Source: an uncultured Cytophagales bacterium (GTDB lineage Bacteria; Bacteroidota; Bacteroidia; Cytophagales; Cyclobacteriaceae). From it: a DNA stretch of 64,000 nt. The position numbers were made by a program, and so were the translations under genes. Within the stretch, counting starts at the first letter, position 1. The number at the start of each line of letters is the position of its first letter. Positions 9,492-60,555 of this stretch are shown here, in pieces. The stretch lies in the NCBI GenBank assembly GCA_963774615.1, contig CAVZFT010000035.1, positions 40,595 through 104,594 of the forward strand, in the 5' to 3' direction. The notes beneath the pieces are model-generated. The model was not told the origin of the DNA, made no database searches, and saw only the letters and a program-made list of their open reading frames with translations.

Positions 9492-10058
9492 ATGCTAAAG
9501 ATTAAAAGTAGTCCGTTAATGTGGCTTTTTCCCGCAGTATTGTTCTTCATCGCGGCAGATAAGCCCAAGTTGATGAAAGTGAAAGTCAACGACGCCATCA
9601 CGGTGTCCGTACCCAAGGATTGGCTTCCGATGCAGGAGGACGATATAGTTCAGCGTTATCCATCGGTGCGCGCCCCTCTCATGGCCTATACTAATGCGGA
9701 ACGTGTTGCAGACTTCAGTGTGAATGTATCTGCAACTCAGTGGCCGGATGATGACATCGAGCTTGCTAAAAAGTTTTTTAAGGCCGGCCTGGTTAATGTT
9801 TTTGATCGCGTAGATATGATCGACGAAGGAATTCACGAGGTGCGTGGTAAAAAGTTTATCTTCTTTGAGTTTGAATCGCGAATAAATGGCAGCCGGCAGC
9901 AGGAATCAACGCAAGATCCGGTGATGCGCTATACTTACATTCAATATTTCATTGAACCGGGAAGGGCCCTCGTGTTTTCATTTAATTGTCCGCGTCGCGA
10001 CCGAGAATTATGGCAGGAAACTGCGCGGGCAATGATGGGAGAGGTGAGAATAAAATAA
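9492..10058 (+). CDS. Hypothetical secreted protein
   Basis: 188 aa ORF with a hydrophobic N-terminus, filling the intergenic space divergent from aspS. Confidence 0.7.
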   Translation: MLKIKSSPLMWLFPAVLFFIAADKPKLMKVKVNDAITVSVPKDWLPMQEDDIVQRYPSVRAPLMAYTNAERVADFSVNVSATQWPDDDIELAKKFFKAGLVNVFDRVDMIDEGIHEVRGKKFIFFEFESRINGSRQQESTQDPVMRYTYIQYFIEPGRALVFSFNCPRRDRELWQETARAMMGEVRIK

Positions 10059-10104
10059 ACCAGACAGTTTGGGGTCTTTGCGTTGTCATTCTGCATGAGG
10101 CTTT

Positions 10105-10112
10105 TAGCTTTG
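10105..10112 (+). promoter_or_regulatory. Bacteroidota sigma-A -7 box upstream of tadA
   Basis: TAGCTTTG matches TAnnTTTG; TTTG at ~10077 is a plausible -33 box. Confidence 0.55.
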
Positions 10113-41416: not shown

Positions 41417-43410
41417 ATGGCAAAAGTTTCAAAGCCAGGTGAAAGACCAAGAAAGGCTGCTCCCGTTGAGGTAGCAAAGCCTGTAGCGAAGAAGCAAAAA
41501 GAAGGTAAAATCGAGATTGACGAAGATGATCCGTTAGCAGAGATCAAATCCCTTCAGAAAGAGGAAATCCATACTGAAGCCATTCCGGTTTCAGAACTCA
41601 AAAAAGCCAAGTACGAGAAGCAGGTTCCTGGTGAATTTGACTTTGACGCGTTTGAATCAAGGGGCTTTGGCGAAGGATACTCCAAAGACAAGCGTGCTGA
41701 AATGGAGAAGATGTACTCCGTCACGGTTACTTCTGTTGATACTGGTGAAGTTGTAAAAGGAACAGTTGTTGGAATAAACGACCGCGACGTGATCCTTAAC
41801 ATTGGATTCAAGTCCGACGGTCTTGTGCCGCTGGCGGAATTCAAGGAAATGCCGAACCTGAAGATCGGTGACATAGTTGACCTGTTCATTGAAGAGCGTG
41901 AAGACTCAATGGGTCAATTGGTGTTGAGCCGCAGAAAAGCGAAACTGGTGAAGGGTTGGGAATATGTACAAACGCACTTGATAAGGATCAGGTTATCGAA
42001 GGTTTTGTAAAACGCAGAACCAAAGGTGGTCTTATCGTGGATGTCTTTGGAATCGAAGCGTTCCTTCCTGGATCACAAATCGATGTGAAGCCTATCCGCG
42101 ATTTCGATATTTATGTTAATAAGTCAATCGAAGTGAAAGTTGTGAAGATCAACTACACTAACGACAACGTAGTTGTATCGCATAAAGTCCTTATCGAGAA
42201 AGATCTCGAGCAGCAGAAAGCAGTTATCCTCACCAACCTCGAAAAAGGTCAGGTGTTGGAAGGTGTGATCAAGAACATGACCAACTTCGGTGTGTTCATC
42301 GACCTTGGTGGTGTGGACGGATTACTTCACATTACAGATATCAGCTGGGGACGTATCAACCATCCGGAAGAAGTGCTCAAGCTTGATCAGACTGTTAAAG
42401 TTGTTGTGCTTGACTTCGACGGTGACAAGAAGAGAATTTCACTGGGTATGAAGCAGCTTACTCCTCATCCTTGGGATGCGTTGGCTGCTGAGATCCAGGT
42501 TGGATCTAAAGTAAAAGGTCGGATCGTTAACGTTGCTGACTACGGCGCGTTCCTCGAATTGCAGCCAGGTGTTGAAGGATTGATCCACGTAAGCGAAATG
42601 AGCTGGTCACAGCACTTGCGCAATCCTCAGGACTTCATGAAGGTTGGTGACGAAGTTCAAGCTGTAGTGTTGACGTTGGATCGCGACGAGCGTAAGATGT
42701 CTCTTGGCATTAAGCAACTCACGAAGATCCATGGACAAGACAAGATGTTCTTACCAAGTATGCGGTGGGAACGAGACACAAAGGTATCGTTCGTAACCTT
42801 ACCAACTTCGGCTTGTTCATCGAGCTGGAAGAAGGTATCGACGGTCTCGTTCACGTATCAGACCTAAGCTGGACGAAGAAGATCAAACATCCTTCTGAGT
42901 TCGTGAAAGTTGGAGATACCATGGAAGTACAAGTGCTGGAGCTTGATGCTGCTAACCGAAGATTAGCGCTTAGCCATAAGCACATGGAAGAGAACCCTTG
43001 GGATACTTTCGAAACGATCTTCACTATAGGATCGGTCCACAAGTGTACGGTGATCAACAAGAATGACAAAGGTGCTATTCTTGAATTGCCTTACGGTATC
43101 GAAGGTTTCTGCGCCGCGAAGAACCTTGCTAAGGAAGACAACTCAAAGATCGAAGTTGGCGAATCGCTTGACTTCAAAGTTCTCGAGTTCTCGAAAGACG
43201 ACAGAAGAATTGTTCTTTCACACAAGTCTACGTGGTCTGCTGACGAAGAGAAGCCTGCAGCTCCTCCTGTGAAGAAGAAGCCAGTTCCTGCTAAGGGTAC
43301 ACGTTCAATCGATCAATCAGCAAGCTGAGAAGTCGACACTCGGTGACCTCGAAGCACTCAGTGCGTTAAAGGAAAAGATGTCTGGCGGCGGCGAGCCAAA
43401 AGCTGAATAA
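41417..43410 (+). CDS. rpsA: 30S ribosomal protein S1 (bS1); three apparent frameshifts (~41975, ~42725, ~43320)
   Basis: S1 repeats: NIGFKSDG, AFLPGSQID, FGVFIDLGGVDGLLHITDISW, EGLIHVSEMSW, DGLVHVSDLSW; tail STLGDLEAL. Confidence 0.95.
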
Positions 43411-43426
43411 GCCTTTTAATATAAAG

Positions 43427-43464
43427 GAAAGGTGACCGAGCTTTTGGTCACCTTTCTTTTTTTT
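43427..43464 (+). terminator. Intrinsic terminator after rpsA
   Basis: GAAAGGTGACC-GAGCTTTT-GGTCACCTTTC followed by a T-run. Confidence 0.85.
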
Positions 43465-43541
43465 GATAGGGTTGTAATCAACAGTGATTTTTATAGTTTT
43501 GCAAGGGAAGGTTTTAGTAGTTAAACCTTGATTGAATAAAT

Positions 43542-43612
43542 GGTCTCGTGGCCGAGTGGCTAGGCAGAGCTCTGCAAAAGCTTCTACAGCGGTTCGAATC
43601 CGCTCGAGACCT
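43542..43612 (+). tRNA. tRNA-Cys(GCA), CCA not encoded
   Basis: Acceptor GGTCTCG/CGAGACC, anticodon stem GAGCT/AGCTT with loop CTGCAAA, T-arm AGCGG-TTCGAAT-CCGCT. Confidence 0.95.
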
Positions 43613-43625
43613 CTACAAGGAAAAG

Positions 43626-43653
43626 AGTCAGTCACCTTAAGACTGACTTTTTT
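43626..43653 (+). terminator. Terminator after tRNA-Cys, repeated at ~43829 and ~54723
   Basis: AGTCAGTC-N7-GACTGACT followed by a T-run. Confidence 0.8.
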
Positions 43654-43674
43654 GTTTTTGAGAGATTATTTAAA

Positions 43675-43938
43675 TCAGCGACTGGTTCGAATCGCTCGCC
43701 GTCCGTAGCGCCTCGCGAAGGCGGCCGCTCGAGACCTCTAAAATAAATTCAGCGACTGGTTCGAATCGCTCGCCGTCCGTAGCGCTTCGCGAAGGCGGCC
43801 GCTCGAGACCTCTAATAAAATAATAAGAAGTCAGTCGCAGAAGACTGACCTTTTGTTTTTGAGAGTTTATTTAAATCAGCGACTGGTTCGAATCGTTCGG
43901 CGACGTAGCGTCTCGCGAAGTCGACCGCTCGAGACCTC
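43675..43938 (+). repeat. Three modified copies of the tRNA-Cys 3' end (R1 43675-43740, R2 43749-43814, R3 43876-43938)
   Basis: TCAGCG-ACTG-GTTCGAATC-[31-32 nt]-CGCTCGAGACCTC versus tRNA CAGCG-GTTCGAATC-CGCTCGAGACCTC; R1 and R2 differ at one base. Confidence 0.9.
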
Positions 43939-44340
43939 AGGAAGCCTTGGAATCTTAAATGATTTCAAGGCTTTTTTATTTTTTAGAAAGCATTCATATT
44001 ATTTTATGTTGTGGACATTTTGCCACGGACCATTCATGTGCCAACGATGAATTTCACTTGTTAAACTGAGGATCGCAAACCTCTGAAACGAGTGAAATGT
44101 GGTATGATTTTTTCCCTACTCCTTTGAAAAGAAGTTCATCGCATGCATATGAATTTTGCATATATGTTATTTGTTGAAGGAGATTGAAAATGACAGATTT
44201 CACCATCGTCACTATACGCCATCAAGAGATGACTGGAATGAAGCTAACACCTTGGGAGTAGTTTACAATTTTGGCAAGGCGGCTAGCTTTATGGATTTGA
44301 ACTTATACATCTGAAATGATTTTACATAAATAGAAATCAT

Positions 44341-44508
44341 ATGAATACAAGATTAAGTTTAATTTTTTTAATCGGTGTCGCGATGGGAACGGCCTTGGGA
44401 CTGTTGATCGCGCCCGAGCCCGCACGCGCTACTTTGCGAAAGGTAAAGCGGGACGCGGACCGGCTCGTTGATAAGGTTGAACAGTTAAAGGAGCAAACGC
44501 AGGCATAA
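44341..44508 (+). CDS. YtxH-domain small protein (not in the ORF track)
   Basis: MNTRLSLIFLIGVAMGTALGLLIAPEPARATLRKVKRDADRLVDKVEQLKEQTQA*, with the G..LGLLxAP pattern. Confidence 0.7.
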   Translation: MNTRLSLIFLIGVAMGTALGLLIAPEPARATLRKVKRDADRLVDKVEQLKEQTQA

Positions 44509-44862
44509 TAGCCTATTATCATGGTTCAATAGAGTTTATTGAAATGTTTTGTATGGGTATTGATTTTTTTATAGGAGTTACATATCAATTGGTAAAGGGC
44601 ACTCACCAGGCCCCAAGACGATCGGGGGGAAGGCATCGCTATTGGAAGATCAGGAGCCTACGCTGGACAAGCAGGATTCCGACTTTGATCCTTCCCATGT
44701 TATTATGAGCTGCCGTGTACCTGTGATTTGTATGCTCAGTCATTAGGAAACAGACGCAAAATAAATCAATGTAGTGTGAATAAATTCAATTCCAGTATGA
44801 ACACACATCAAGAAGGACCTTATGGTTTGACGCTTTCAGATAAATCAATTGTATTTAATTGG

Positions 44863-45126
44863 ATGTCGCAGAAACCGAAAAAACCAAACGAGATCCCCGT
44901 GCCCGGAAAAAATCCTGAAACAATCCCTACTCCAGAACCTGAGCCTGGCGTATGGCCCACGAAGGAACCGGAAATTCAACCCGAGAGAGAGCCACTCACT
45001 GTACCGCCAACACCACCTCCTGAAATTCCGAAACCTCCACAAGAGTTGGTAATTCTTGATTCCTTTTTAGTGGAAGAGAAGAGTTTATCAATGAAGCAAG
45101 ATGCTCTAATGAATTACGTACTATAA
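44863..45126 (+). CDS. Small Pro/Glu-rich hypothetical protein
   Basis: MSQKPKKPNEIPVPGKNPETIPTPEPEP...; start and C-terminus uncertain. Confidence 0.5.
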   Translation: MSQKPKKPNEIPVPGKNPETIPTPEPEPGVWPTKEPEIQPEREPLTVPPTPPPEIPKPPQELVILDSFLVEEKSLSMKQDALMNYVL

Positions 45127-54484: not shown

Positions 54485-54685
54485 TCTTCATAAGTTATAT
54501 TAAACTTCTGCGATTTGAGATTTAAATAGTATGATTTGCTGTTGTAAAAAGGAAAGGGAATTTCAAAAGTGAGTTGGTAGTTAGCTTTTTTTGTTCACAG
54601 CATCGTATTTTTCATCAGTGCAGGGATTGATTGCTCTGTCTTATAGTGTAAGATTAGGCTATCGATCTGCAGAATTGTGCAAACC

Positions 54686-54764
54686 TTCGAATCCGCTCGT
54701 GACCTCCAAGAAAATAATAAGAAGTCAGTCGCCCAAGACTGACTTTTTGTTTTTAAGAGATTAT
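54686..54764 (+). repeat. att-like copy of the tRNA-Cys 3' end plus terminator and linker
   Basis: TTCGAATCCGCTCGTGACCTCC-AAGAAAATAATAAGAAGTCAGTC-GCCCAA-GACTGACTTTTTGTTTTTAAGAGATTAT, closely matching 43800-43870. Confidence 0.85.
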
Positions 54765-54815
54765 GATCTTTTTAAAAAACTAAGAACAGCAGCCGAGGCA
54801 AAAACCTCAGCAGAG

Positions 54816-55767
54816 TTATTTTACAAAGGCGTACAATTGCCTTGGGTTTTCAATAAAAATTTTTTTCTGATAGTCGGCCAGACCTCTTTTGTGCAATTCA
54901 GTTACAAAATCAGTGAGCAAATAAGTTAGGCCGGGCTTGCCACCATACGATTTCCAGTAAGTATGCCGGGCGGCATCCATCCCTACCGTGATTTGATCAG
55001 GATAATCCGACAACAGCTTCTCCAGCAGGAGGAACGTAAAATTCTCACCGCCCGGTTTCCAGCGAAAGGCACTGTCGTACTCCACCCGCACACCGGTTTG
55101 CATCAGCGCCTGATGATATCCCAAGTCGTTGCAGCGGTCAACATGGGATATTACGACATGACCTAAATCAGCGCCCAATTGATGAAACAGTTCGGCTTGT
55201 TCAACAGCATGTCTGCCTGCATTGGTGTGTGTCAATATCGGTACACCGGTTTTCTTATGCGTTGCCACAACAGCGCGAAAAATCTTTTTTAGGTTGTCAT
55301 CAAAAGGCTCATCGCCACTGGCTAACTTGATCATGCCCGCCTTGTGGGAGGTTCTTTCCACAACCGGCGAACTGTAATCATATCGATCAATTCCTATCAC
55401 GACATCGTCGATAAACAACTGGGTTAATTGCTCTTCCGACAGATAAAATTGCCAATGACGGGGTGGATAATATATGGGCAGATGAATACCCGTAGGTGCA
55501 ATGATTTGTATTCCGCGAAAGCCGGGATACTTCCGCTAATTTCATTACATTTCTTCCACAGGCAGCCGGCATGGTATCAACCATGGTACGGCCACCGGCT
55601 ATATATACTTCTTTTAACTCCGCGGAAATTTTCGTTGTATCATTCAATAAAAAATCAGGGTTCTGTAAAACGGGAAAACTTTCTTCAATGACAATATGTT
55701 CGTGCGAATACGTAACGCCCATTTGGGAAGGCTCAATATCGCCCAGCACTGTTCTTACAAAACTCAT
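54816..55767 (-). CDS. Phosphotriesterase-family (aryldialkylphosphatase-like) protein; frameshifts near 55450-55515
   Basis: TYSHEHI, VDTMP, ILTHT, VISHVDR, GMDAAR. Confidence 0.82.
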
Positions 55768-55786: not shown

Positions 55787-57200
55787 TTATTTTTTTAGGA
55801 TATGAACCACCGTTTCCAGGGTACCTGCCGTTATATTTTTGCTCCATTCATTTCTTCCCGTGAACGCTGTTGTAGAAGGTAATTCCAATACAGCGCCTGT
55901 TCGGTATAATCTTTCGCGCAATGCAGTCACATCCAATTGATGTGCTGCCTGTTCTTTTTGTAACGATTGCACAGCCGCGAGTCCCGCTGCCTGGCCCATA
56001 CTCATGGTTTGAGCCATCGAGCGACAGGAAGCATGGGCATCATGCGTGGCAGAAAAACAACGGCCTACTACCCATGCCGTTGTACTTCCTTTGGGAACAA
56101 TAGTTCCGTATGGCACGCCATATACACCATTCTCGGGAATATAGGCCCAATACGTTTCGTCTCCGCCGTCCTTTCCTTTGCGGTGGTCTTCAATCGGCGC
56201 GCCGCAAACTAAAATAGTATCGGCTGGGATTTTAGCTTCCATGCAATCTTCTTTTGTAAGCCGGTATTCACCATATACCCGGCGCGTTTCTCGTACGCCG
56301 ATCTGGTGGGACAAACCAACAATATTGGAGGCTTCATAGCCGGGTACTTCCTGCTGAAAAAATTTTTCAAACACAAAGGCCTGGCGACGCCCTTCTATTT
56401 CTGCTTTGGTTAATTCTTCCGCAATGAGCGGACGAAGGTCACTCACTTTTACGGCAACGGTTGATATACACTTTTTTGCATTCATCTCGTGCGCCGATCC
56501 CTCCTTACGTGGCAGCGGATGTTTGCCGGCTTGCGACCGCCTCCTGCATTTTTTGCTGCAACATTTTTTTTCCACCCGCGCTCTCAAACAGTTCAAGTTC
56601 CACGTTACTCATGCGGAAAGTTGTGGTCATACTTTGAGCTGGCTCCAACTCCCCGGCAATTTCATACGGAAAACCGGCCAGGTGACAAAAGTCTGCATCG
56701 CCGGAAGCATCGATTACGCGTTGCGCAATGATCTTTCCAAAGCCGGATTTATTCCAGCATATACATTCATATCTCAAATCCCCTAAAATATTTACATCTA
56801 CCAGTGTCGTGTGTAATAAATAACGTATCGCCGATTGCAGAATAAGTTTGTCCCATACCTGTTTTAACCTTTCAGGATTATAATTCACACCCGTACCAGC
56901 GCCATACGTATTAGGACGTAAAAAAATTTCGCCCAAGGCCTCCAGTTCATTCACAACAACATCGGGAAATCCGCCAGCTACTTTTCGGGCCCTTGCACCA
57001 GGCGTAAAGAAGCCATAAAAAGTATCCAGCATTTGTGTTGAAGTACCTCCCGGAAAGCCATAACGTTCGATCAGCATGACCGGGTAAGGACCGGTAGCAG
57101 CAGCCAATGCAGCGGTACATCCTGCCGATCCTGCTCCTATTACCAAAATACCGGTTTCAGCCAGTACAGGAATTTTATTATGATTAATGAAATCGTACAA
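55787..57200 (-). CDS. FAD-dependent oxidoreductase (FAD_oxidored type); frameshift near 56520-56590
   Basis: VIGAGSAGCTAA, IDASGDAD, IGVRETRRVYGEY, VVGRCFSATH. Confidence 0.82.
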
Positions 57201-57275: not shown

Positions 57276-57395
57276 TTGACGATTATCCGTTCAATTTCAA
57301 TTTCAATAAATTTCGATGTTGGTGTGTGGCTTTTATCCGCTACAGAGTTGAGTGGCACCAACGCATTGGCGTCAGGAAAATAAGCAGCTGCACAC
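57276..57395 (-). repeat. Orphan duplicate of the last ~120 bp of the ydeP-like gene
   Basis: 5 mismatches in 120 bp versus 58304-58423; encodes CAAAYFPDANALVPLNSVADKSHTPTSKFIEIEIERIIVK*. Confidence 0.9.
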
Positions 57396-58299: not shown

Positions 58300-60555
58300 T
58301 CAATTGACGATCATCCGTTCAATTTCAATTTCAATAAATTTCGAAGTTGGTGTATGGCTTTTATCCGCTACAGAGTTGAGTGGCACCAACACATTGGCTT
58401 CAGGAAAATAAGCAGCTGCACACCCTTCTGGAATATTGTACGGAATTGCTTTAAATCCTTTTGCTGTCCTGCGGATACCATCTGATGCGAGGCTGAAGAT
58501 GTCCAGGACATCTCCGCTTACAATATTTTTCTTTCTCATATCCGACTCATTCAGGAAAATAACTTTCCGTTCTCCTTTTACTCCACGATAGCGGTCGTCC
58601 ATTCCATAAATGGTAGTGTTGTACTGATCATGAGAACGGATGGTCATTAATCTTAATTTGCCTGGCTTCATAGAAAGTATCGGCAACGGAGCCGTTATAA
58701 AATTAGCCTTGCCAGTGGATGTATTCCATCTTCTTTCACGGGCTGCATTTCCCAGATAAAATCCTCCCGGGTGTTTTAGGCGTTCATTAAAGTTTTCGAA
58801 GGCAGGAAGCACTCTTTCAATTTTGTCCCGGATACGATTATAATCACTCACCAGTCCTGCCCAATCTATTTTTGTATTTGGTAAAGAGGCAATGGCCATG
58901 CACGCGACAATAGAAGGTTCGGACAATAAATGTTCGGACGCAGGCTTGTTAATTCCTTCTGACGTATGCACCATGGACATGGAATCTTCTACAGTAACCT
59001 TTTGAGGAATTTTATTTTGAAGATCAATTTCTGTTCTTCCTAAGCAGGGAAGGATAAATGCTTGATGTCCAGTTACCAGATGACTTCTGTTAAGTTTTGT
59101 GCTAATGTAAGTTGTAAGCTCGCATTTCTTAATAGCATCTTCGGTAAACGATGTGTCGGGGGTAGACGACACGAAATTTCCACCCATACCGATAAATACT
59201 TTTACTTTATGGGCATTCATCGCACGGATCGCATCCACTGTATTGTAACCGTGCTGTCGCGGAGCGACAAAATCAAATACATTTTCTAAAGCATCCAAAA
59301 AAAACTCTGATGGATTTTCAACAATACCCATCGTACGATCACCTTGCACATTGCTATGTCCGCGCACGGGGCACAGCCCTGCACCCGGCTTACCAATATT
59401 TCCTTTTAATAAAAGTAAGTTCACAATTTGCTGAATGGTGATAACGGCATGCTTGCTTTGTGTGAGTCCCATTGCCCAACACACAATTGTTTTAGAGGAA
59501 CGCAGATAAACCTCAGCTGCCTCTAAAATTTGTTCCTGCGTCAATCCGGATTGTTGGACAATGTCCCCCCATAAGGTTTGCGCTATATCCGCTTTTAGTT
59601 CCTCAACGCCAACGGTATGTGCAACAATAAAATCATGATCCAATTGGTGAGGATTTTTTTCAGATGCTTCGAATACAGCTTTCAATAATCCTTTTAATAC
59701 GGCAAAGTCTCCTCCTATTACGGGTTGATAATAATGTGTGGATATAGCACTGCCTTTATTTAGCAATGTCTGCACTATGTGCTGTGGATTGACAAAACTT
59801 TCAAGTCCTTTTTCTCTTAAAGGATTGAAGGATAAAATCTGACAGCCTCTTTTCGCGGCACGTTCTAACACGGTAAGCATGCGGGGATGGTTTGTACCGG
59901 GGTTTTGTCCGAAAATAAAAATAGCTTCAGCTTCTTCGAAATCATCTAACGATACAGTACCCTTCCCAACGCCTACTGCTTCGGTCATGGCAACCCCTGA
60001 GGATTCATGACACATGTTGGAGCAGTCAGGGAAATTGTTAGTGCCAAGTTCTCTTCCAAAAAGCTGATAGAGAAAAGCTGCTTCATTACTGGTGCGTCCG
60101 GAAGTATAAAATACGGCTTCATCCGGATGCTCCATCCTCTGAATTTCTTGACCAATGGTATAAAATGCTTTCTCCCAGGTTACTCGTTCATATTTATCGG
60201 TTTTCGGATTGTAGCGCATGGGTTCTGTGAGACGCCCTTGTTGCTCAAGCCAGTATCCGTCTTTTTGCAGCAAGTCAGAAACGGTATGCTTTTCAAAAAA
60301 TTCCTTTGTTATTCTTTTGCCTGTAGTCTCGGCGGCGATAGCTTTTACACCGTTTTCGCAAAACTCAGTGATGGAATAATTTTTTGGATCCGGCCAGGCA
60401 CATCCCGGACAATCAAAACCTCCTGGCTTATTCATTCTGAGCAACGCCTTAACACCAGGTGTCATCGCGCGCTCGTGTAAAATATGTTTTAAGCTCGATG
60501 CCAACGCTTCAAGACCTGCTGCAGGGCCGGGTTGGGAAGATTTGTTTGATTTCAT
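58300..60555 (-). CDS. FdhF/YdeP-family molybdopterin oxidoreductase (Fdh4A-like)
   Basis: GFDCPGCAWPD, EFCENG, YTSGRTSNEAAF, FPDCSNMCHE, RGHSNVQGDRTMG, TIRSHDQYNTTIYG. Confidence 0.92.
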   Translation of the reverse strand: MKSNKSSQPGPAAGLEALASSLKHILHERAMTPGVKALLRMNKPGGFDCPGCAWPDPKNYSITEFCENGVKAIAAETTGKRITKEFFEKHTVSDLLQKDGYWLEQQGRLTEPMRYNPKTDKYERVTWEKAFYTIGQEIQRMEHPDEAVFYTSGRTSNEAAFLYQLFGRELGTNNFPDCSNMCHESSGVAMTEAVGVGKGTVSLDDFEEAEAIFIFGQNPGTNHPRMLTVLERAAKRGCQILSFNPLREKGLESFVNPQHIVQTLLNKGSAISTHYYQPVIGGDFAVLKGLLKAVFEASEKNPHQLDHDFIVAHTVGVEELKADIAQTLWGDIVQQSGLTQEQILEAAEVYLRSSKTIVCWAMGLTQSKHAVITIQQIVNLLLLKGNIGKPGAGLCPVRGHSNVQGDRTMGIVENPSEFFLDALENVFDFVAPRQHGYNTVDAIRAMNAHKVKVFIGMGGNFVSSTPDTSFTEDAIKKCELTTYISTKLNRSHLVTGHQAFILPCLGRTEIDLQNKIPQKVTVEDSMSMVHTSEGINKPASEHLLSEPSIVACMAIASLPNTKIDWAGLVSDYNRIRDKIERVLPAFENFNERLKHPGGFYLGNAARERRWNTSTGKANFITAPLPILSMKPGKLRLMTIRSHDQYNTTIYGMDDRYRGVKGERKVIFLNESDMRKKNIVSGDVLDIFSLASDGIRRTAKGFKAIPYNIPEGCAAAYFPEANVLVPLNSVADKSHTPTSKFIEIEIERMIVN

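Follow-up and report, generated by a model that had tools for sequence, protein, structure and literature searches.

The DNA analysed here, hereafter the window, is a stretch of 64,000 nucleotides from an uncultured Cytophagales bacterium (GenBank assembly GCA_963774615.1, contig CAVZFT010000035.1). Its sole tRNA gene is tRNA-Cys(GCA) at 43542-43613 (ARAGORN; Rfam tRNA, 59.9 bits), and downstream of this gene lies an array of three short units, R1 to R3, each carrying a copy of the tRNA 3' end interrupted by a GC-rich hairpin. The array may represent gene-less attachment-site modules of integrative elements that target tRNA-Cys, shuffled at a 14-bp core and bearing a hairpin of the repetitive extragenic palindromic (REP) kind; we give this reading a probability of about 0.45.

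The gene rpsA and its terminator lie approximately 130 nt upstream of tRNA-Cys. In the 3' direction the order is terminator T1, linker, R1, 11-nt linker, R2, spacer, terminator T2, linker, R3 and terminator T3. The features are as follows.

43472-43501, + strand: candidate Bacteroidota-type promoter of tRNA-Cys (TTG, 19 nt, TAGTTTTG), read by eye
43542-43613, + strand: tRNA-Cys(GCA), no encoded CCA (ARAGORN, Rfam, repeat family D2)
43621-43675, + strand: terminator T1 (AGAGTCAGTC/GACTGACT plus T-run, 43621-43653), then AT-rich linker TTTTTGAGAGATTATTTAAAT (terminator scan, repeat families D1/D5, alignment A1)
43676-43738, + strand: unit R1, with T-arm-like 5' part 43676-43697, hairpin 43698-43725 and core 43725-43738
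43739-43749, + strand: AT-rich 11-nt linker TAAAATAAATT between R1 and R2, read from the sequence
43750-43812, + strand: unit R2, with hairpin 43772-43799 and core 43799-43812
43813-43876, + strand: spacer, terminator T2 (43830-43849; paralogue of T1 and T4) and linker TTTTTGAGAGTTTATTTAAAT (repeat search, terminator scan, alignment)
43877-43938, + strand: unit R3, diverged, with hairpin at about 43899-43925 and core 43925-43938; also present in a contig of metagenome X1
43939-43982, + strand: terminator T3 (AAGCCTTGG/CAAGGCTT plus T-run, 43939-43976; terminator scan)

The promoter candidate was read against what we take to be the Bacteroidota consensus; TTG-N19-TAGTTTTG likewise precedes tRNA-Cys in the relative L195.

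The anatomy of the array is as described in an earlier note on this DNA. Each unit (63, 63 and 62 nt for R1, R2 and R3, respectively) comprises the last 27 nt of the tRNA (CAGCG-GTTCGAATC-CGCTCGAGACCTC) with two insertions, ACTG placed after CAGCG and a 32-nt insert (31 nt in R3) placed after GGTTCGAATC. The repeated core is the last 14 nt of tRNA-Cys (43600-43613, CCGCTCGAGACCTC), exact in the gene and in R1 to R3 with spacings of 125, 74 and 126 nt, so that a direct repeat of the tRNA 3' end stands beside an intact tRNA gene, the arrangement associated with attachment (att) sites. One option of the earlier note, a recombination core disabled by the insertion, is not supported: all units retain the 3' 14 bp unbroken, the hairpin falling within the T-arm part instead. 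The core of the hairpin, CGTAGCGnnTCGCGAAG, occurs three times in 64 kb against 0.11 expected, and CGCTCGAGACC four times exactly and once with one mismatch against 0.41 expected. All copies of the 14-bp core (four exact, one with one mismatch) are on the + strand.

On either side of the 32-nt insert stands one copy of a 5-6-nt direct repeat, (C)GCTCG...CGCTCG, suggestive of a target duplication or of a junction formed by microhomology. No credible open reading frame (ORF) was found between the units, as previously reported; ORFs that run across units are spurious, because GTAG gives an in-frame stop. The duplicated terminators noted before are T1 and T2, paralogous AGTCAGTC terminators, with T3 unrelated to both. 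The 5' end of R2 (TTCAGCGACTG, 43748-43758) is 91% complementary over 11 nt to the left arm and loop of T2 (43832-43842), an anti-terminator type of pairing that is likely a coincidence. The unit also contains GCGGCCGCTCGAG, resembling a NotI-XhoI cloning-site junction. Vector contamination was considered on this account and rejected, since the sequence turns up independently in numerous metagenomes from soil, peat and sediment.

A fifth copy of the tRNA-Cys 3' end, M4, was found 10.7 kb downstream of the array by a BLAST comparison of the relative L134 with the window.

54666-54706, + strand: M4, degenerate, without hairpin and ACTG; core CCGCTCGTGACCTC at 54693-54706 (BLAST, alignment)
54707-54765, + strand: spacer, terminator T4 (nearest T2) and linker TTTTTAAGAGATTAT (alignment, repeats)

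The core of M4 has one mismatch to that of the tRNA, and its last 23 nt (54684-54706) form an uninterrupted block of identity with the gene at 20 of 23 positions (3 mismatches). T4, a third paralogue of the AGTCAGTC terminator, follows and leads into the TTTTTAAGAGATTAT linker. Nucleotide synteny with the relatives L192 and L193, which are 94-97% identical here, starts at about 54788, some 25-80 nt past M4 and about 25 nt past the linker, and to the left of this point both relatives carry unrelated genes. The 10.7 kb from R3 to M4 encode YtxH, a PEBP protein, a TonB-C fragment, CsbD, an AI-2E transporter, an AraC regulator, a hybrid histidine kinase and response regulators. An exact-match look-up of the PEBP protein found no record. 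M4 could be the displaced distal end of an insertion at tRNA-Cys, a proposal to which we give slightly less than even odds.

The linkage of rpsA to tRNA-Cys is kept in four relatives (L189, L190, L191 and L195), and in L188 the tRNA gene has been relocated. The DNA 3' of tRNA-Cys differs from one relative to the next, with HipBA in L189, sulfite reductase in L190, a LytTR regulator in L134 and, in L195, unannotated ORFs without a Pfam match at the edge of a predicted provirus. The tRNA-Cys genes of L188, L189, L190 and L195 are without units. The L195 provirus (IMGVR_UViG_2595698225_000001), predicted at 24.5 kb in an isolate genome, begins (positions 1-600) at the segment formed by the rpsA terminator, promoter and tRNA-Cys; this tRNA has the same 3' end as that of the window, and it is the first three ORFs of the provirus that lack a Pfam match. 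A second lineage with altered copies of the tRNA-Cys T-arm behind the gene is represented by L191, a more distant relative (76% S1 identity). At 9500-10111 its tRNA-Cys and terminator are followed by four copies of an altered T-arm repeat unlike that of the window (ATCAGCGCAGCTAATCCGCTC), approximately 110-190 nt apart, and the 118-kb contig ends inside this array.

The units as defined here are restricted to a narrow lineage. Pieces of the locus were recovered from soil, rhizosphere, peat and sediment metagenomes, and the closest named rpsA fragment, at 82% identity, is from a Cyclobacteriaceae metagenome-assembled genome (MAG). The copy number and order of the units vary between strains. The arrangements comprise no unit at all; tRNA-unit-T3, seen in run X6 as a single unit with a T3-like terminator; tRNA-unit-T1 (X31); tRNA-T1-unit (L134); tRNA-T2-R3-unit, with linkers on either side of R3 (X29); and the tRNA-T1-R1-R2-T2-R3-T3 of the window. 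In X3, X11 and X9 a short linker joins tRNA and unit, and unit-unit junctions occur in X10, X11, X25 and X29. The linker TAAAATAAATT, or one near-identical to it, bridges tRNA and unit or unit and unit in X9, X10, X29 and X31. Throughout, the unit ends (CAGCG...GAGACCTC) are identical across at least six flank contexts.

Comparison of these arrangements is informative with respect to where exchange takes place. In the window the T2 module comes after the R2 core, and in X29 that module stands immediately behind the tRNA; the tRNA of the window carries the T1 module, as do those of L134 and X31. The array is accordingly a mosaic of two tRNA-downstream alleles, the junction between them falling exactly at the core. 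Between the window and L134 the tRNA is 98% identical, the hairpin 93% and the core 92%, as opposed to 68% for the T-arm-like part, 49% for the spacer and terminator and 37% past the unit. Set against flanks at 37-49%, the values of 92-93% indicate that hairpin and core behave as one constrained module. Such strong conservation, judged from sequence, suggests that this pair is what matters, most simply as a protein-binding recombination site.

How might such an array arise? We propose that it is the DNA-level debris, still shuffling, of recombination, either site-specific or driven by homology, at the tRNA-Cys 3' end; the array would then be no gene and no collection of tRNA mimics. A single unit would consist of a T-arm copy in decay, a GC-rich hairpin of the REP kind and the intact 14-bp tRNA 3' end. 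Recombination of any two cores would excise, insert or duplicate the intervening DNA, whether this is the 11-nt linker, a terminator-linker module or the 10.7-kb gene block, and would in time produce arrays whose number and order depend on the strain. The units may be descended from the attP-like region (arm, hairpin and core) of an integrative element, which has survived the loss of the element's genes, and a recombinase encoded elsewhere may act on hairpin and core together.

The anatomy fits the signature of integration at a tRNA 3' end, in that the gene is intact, a distal copy is displaced and the neighbourhood is hypervariable. What is unusual is that three copies enclose only linkers or a terminator. 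Also supportive of this view is that the units do not code for protein, lack promoters and are unremarkable in folding. The earlier note offered three explanations, and of these its att-site scars fit best, given M4 at the synteny breakpoint, the hypervariable DNA downstream and the exchange at the core.

Several observations weigh against an origin in attachment sites. Duplex DNA of 74-125 bp cannot close into a circle, being too short, and classical excision and integration are therefore not the direct source of the small units. The identity with the tRNA is broken by the hairpin, unlike ordinary att identity blocks, such that in R1 to R3 the T-arm part is split and only the last 14 nt are contiguous with the gene. 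No integrase, transposase or other recombinase was detected in the 64-kb window (10 ORFs from 45 to 56.6 kb compared with Pfam and 49 others with PHROGs), and within this scope there is no tyrosine or serine recombinase gene between the repeats. A clean empty site is lacking among the relatives, none of which has both flanks adjacent, the gene order being rearranged at both. The GC content, lower after 44 kb, remains so past M4; an island delimited by composition was rejected because the drop extends beyond this distal repeat. Finally, in metatranscriptome X9 a 168-nt contig with at least 99% identity joins tRNA, linker and unit, which an RNA role would fit too. The depth of this contig is 2.5 and DNA carry-over is possible; nearby, only rpsA fragments of other species map in the run.

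A competing idea, which we consider unlikely, places mobility in the hairpin itself. The unit would be a non-autonomous mini-cassette, the hairpin being recognised in trans on single-stranded DNA by an HUH/RAYT-like or integron-integrase-like enzyme and the adjacent 14 nt copying the end of the target tRNA, and successive insertions at the tRNA-Cys 3' end would lengthen the arrays. The distribution of the hairpin is relevant here. Its consensus, CCGCC-GTAGCG-YYT-CGCGAA-GGCGG, recurs nearly unchanged in at least five phyla. A scan of a genome collection with CGTAGCGNNTCGCGAAGKCG gave at least 120 loci, mostly chance matches in GC-rich coding sequence, and about ten true hairpins were picked among the matches listed by their complementary flanks. 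A metagenome scan for TTCGAA...hairpin gave 46 loci, of which only L134, a true unit, and L143 are relevant. Members of the family occur in Acidobacteriota (L032, L046, L090), Planctomycetota (L048), Nitrospirota (L069), Paraburkholderia (L036), a rumen MAG (L053) and Bacteroidota (L045, L060, L066, L143, L134). In the Acidobacteriota the hairpin is part of a larger structure with two hairpins, which GGCCGCCT/AGGCGGCC close, and in L060 and L066 it lies within a repeat of more than 150 nt.

In an alignment of 17 copies, 16 columns are invariant, comprising GTAGCG, TCGCGAAG and two positions in the 3' arm of the stem, and only pyrimidines occupy the two loop positions that separate GTAGCG from TCGCGAAG. 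Double changes occur at four pairs of the outer stem, with a covariation score that 0 of 500 shuffles reach; this real covariation is visible only once the 17 family members are aligned. An alternative fold, GTAG then CGYY/GGCG, is 98.5% paired and would explain the loop pyrimidines. Near-invariance across phyla and a covarying stem count in favour of the mini-cassette, and the sharp unit ends in many contexts, the direct repeat flanking the insert and the excess conservation of hairpin and core over their flanks point in the same direction. So does the position of the hairpin in Bacteroidota, where it is found behind three different tRNAs and in the tRNA orientation: behind tRNA-Cys in the window; in L045 (3841-4010), where three tandem 32-nt hairpin units (TCTCACC...GGCGGG) start 2 nt past tRNA-Gly(CCC); and approximately 165 nt after tRNA-Arg in L143. 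The inverted second copies of the hairpin in L036 and L048 resemble REPINs.

Other findings are difficult to reconcile with a mini-cassette. There is no candidate enzyme in the window or beside the hairpins at six other loci, where neither a recombinase nor a RAYT (Y1 HUH) gene was found, and no recombinase lies beside the L134 unit. Outside the Bacteroidota most family members have no tRNA nearby, and the L143 match comes from a scan biased by TTCGAA. HUH transposition makes no target duplication. The hairpin has no copy in the remaining 63.7 kb of the window, even at up to three mismatches, or in approximately 66 kb of the relatives L188-L193, and there is no sign of ongoing spread. Empty cassettes driven by a nuclease, as the earlier note proposed, are conceivable, but no enzyme was found.

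Rfam at permissive thresholds returned only tRNAs and noise for the window and ten hairpin loci. The one near-match, to sX5 (RF02224), scored 25.3 bits against a gathering threshold of 50 and was confined to the end of the L045 tRNA-Gly and the first hairpin; neither locus belongs to sX5 on this score, the window having no match, and we note that the consensus of this Xanthomonadaceae small RNA itself opens like a tRNA T-loop and 3' end. A literature search for the motif strings found no paper, BLAST of the hairpin against plasmids gave no match, and viral scans gave only chance matches of the motif in coding sequence, with the unit absent. A broader conjecture, which we hold to be a long shot, is that the hairpin, present in at least five phyla and not in Rfam, marks an undescribed class of non-autonomous mini-elements that insert at tRNA 3' ends. 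Equally speculative is that such elements would carry a short copy of the target end and so build gene-less arrays behind tRNA genes (Cys here, Gly in L045).

Might the units instead function as RNA? They would be elements of the tRNA-Cys 3' trailer, co-transcribed with the gene, freed by 3' processing and serving as regulators or decoys; we think this improbable. The rtT RNA of the E. coli tyrT repeats and the sponge formed by the glyW-cysT-leuZ 3' trailer are analogues. The case for a trailer RNA is made by the other strains, in most of which (X6, X31, X3, X11, X9) the unit lies 8-11 nt after tRNA-Cys and before a terminator, hence within the tRNA-Cys transcription unit, by the joined tRNA, linker and unit of X9, by the two loop pyrimidines, which could pair with G as G-C or G.U, and by the shared architecture of E. 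coli tyrT/tyrV. In the window, however, the strong terminator T1 stands between the tRNA and R1, and no promoter motif of the TTG-N19-TAGTTTTG type is present upstream of any unit. Single units fold no better as RNA than shuffled sequences (z 0.06 to 0.57), nor do the hairpins as DNA (z -0.16 and -0.89). The X9 contig, as stated, is shallow enough for DNA carry-over to be considered, and in L053 the hairpin is antisense to both neighbouring genes, as one would expect of a DNA-level element.

The structural claims previously made for the units fare unevenly. The T-arm-like hairpin AGCGA/TCGCT is there but is specific to this lineage, since L134 has CCGCTAC-GTTCGAATCGTTCG at this position and a diverged copy in X3 has CTGGATATTCGAAAAAAGCAGCG. 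A compensatory change was reported for R3; there is one true double change, to A-T, together with a new adjacent G.A mismatch. ARAGORN and the Rfam tRNA clan call only the genuine tRNA-Cys, the units having no 5' acceptor strand, and neither method places the units among tRNAs, tRNA-like RNAs or transfer-messenger RNAs; the rtT model and other families are likewise without a match. With T1 preceding the units and the T-arm not conserved, the suggestion of a transcribed tRNA mimic is weak, the location of the unit in most other strains being the counterpoint.

Equally improbable in our view is that the array is neutral, a local duplication of the tRNA 3' end that received one REP-like insertion, multiplied by slippage or unequal crossing-over and was never an att site. 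R1 and R2 differ at just 1 of 63 positions and are only 11 nt apart, the terminator-linker-unit module is duplicated en bloc, no recombinase was found and the folding energy is unremarkable, all of which such a history accommodates. It leaves unexplained the presence of M4 with a terminator module at a breakpoint 10.7 kb away, the exchange of downstream modules between strains exactly at the core, and the conservation of hairpin and core at 92-93% next to flanks at 37-49%.

An assembly artefact, in the form of a repeat collapsed or expanded in an error-prone long-read assembly, is largely refuted and in our judgement highly improbable: frameshifts in essential or conserved genes, with an extra base in related contigs at or near those in rpsA, do speak for an imperfect assembly, but single-base indel errors cannot make 63-nt units, and every junction of the array is present in independent short-read metagenome contigs, one of which (in X1, 271 nt, 2 substitutions) covers the end of R1, R2, T2, R3 and T3 while X2 holds the tRNA-T1 junction. 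The copy number in this genome itself rests on the assembly. On the 109-kb source contig the genes concerned, split over two or three frames, are rpsA (41417-43328), a phosphotriesterase (54816-55767) and an FAD oxidoreductase (55787-57200). In related metatranscriptome contigs a C is added after 41972 and a G after 42721, at or within approximately 45 nt of the rpsA frame changes, and the frameshifts are probably single-base deletion errors of long reads and not marks of pseudogenes.

Two further observations concern the surroundings. A partial Rfam match to CsrC at 43398-43459 (25 bits against a threshold of 61) was discounted, as the rpsA intrinsic terminator merely matches the terminator end of the model. 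A direct repeat of approximately 77 nt (TTGACGATyATCCGTTCAATTTCAATTTCAATAAATTTCGA...) at 57276-57352 and 58303-58380 encloses a 1-kb segment, and at the corresponding position L193 has about 5.8 kb of other genes.

We now consider the array in relation to known systems. REPs are usually species-specific. The earlier note assigned the insert to the GTAG type, and with respect to shape this holds: DNA folds, and both candidate folds, give a short GC-rich palindrome with a GTAG tag, and members of this form occur in several phyla. The insert shares with the GTAG-class REP/REPIN and RAYT systems (PMC3733652, PMC2817692) a 25-30-nt GC-rich imperfect palindrome containing GTAG, and the family occurs in either orientation and sometimes as inverted pairs. 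It differs in that GTAG is inside the outer stem, not at its foot, and the hairpin is near-identical across phyla. Neither dispersed, abundant copies (64 kb and L188-L193) nor a RAYT gene were seen in the DNA of this lineage that was examined, and the GTAG/CGTC REP paper does not list the hairpin sequence. An integron cassette array is not a suitable description either; there is no integrase in the window and the 'cassettes' are without ORFs.

Within the same phylum, mobilizable Bacteroides elements of the NBU1/NBU2 type, which carry integrase and mobilisation genes, integrate at a core of 13-14 bp that forms the 3' end of a tRNA-Leu or tRNA-Ser gene. The 14-bp core at the extreme 3' end of tRNA-Cys is alike, a likeness drawn from description only, and the array differs in having no integrase or mobilisation genes.

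In E. coli tyrT-tyrV, which encodes the rtT/RttR RNA and the tpr ORF, tandem repeats also stand behind a tRNA and each carries a tRNA 3' end. We checked this locus and found three 178-nt repeats, with rttR annotated and the tRNA-proximal repeat overlapping the tRNA-Tyr 3' end by 19 nt; R1 to R3 are repeats of this description. In other strains the unit, again as in E. coli, lies within the tRNA transcription unit. The units here are a third of the size, contain an inserted hairpin and are separated by terminators, and there is no sequence similarity to tyrT-tyrV, the rtT Rfam model giving no match at E values up to 10 in 42500-45000. If the units were processed from the tRNA-Cys trailer they would provide a second example of the poorly understood rtT type.

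A close parallel is with genomic islands. Partial-tRNA direct repeats at the ends of islands and integrative elements, with arrays that successive integrations leave behind among them, are known from the Islander database (PMC4383910) and the tycheposons of Prochlorococcus (bioRxiv 10.1101/2020.12.28.424599). In common with these, an intact tRNA is followed downstream by 3'-end copies, the distal copy bounds variable genes, the neighbourhood is hypervariable and remnant copies are without integrases. The differences are that three of the four extra copies enclose no genes (11-111 nt between cores), that identity is broken by the 32-nt hairpin and ACTG, and that neither an integrase nor a fragment of one is present in 64 kb. 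Partial tRNA copies are standard landmarks for finding genomic islands, and the locus shows that they are able to endure and become more numerous as 63-nt modules that carry no genes and have a constrained hairpin and core, which island-finding software would mis-score and tRNA annotators ignore. Should the hairpin prove to be a recombination or mobility signal used across phyla, it would offer a new handle on the targeting of tRNA 3' ends. At present the array is a well-documented curiosity of one soil Cytophagales lineage and a modest variant of a known pattern.

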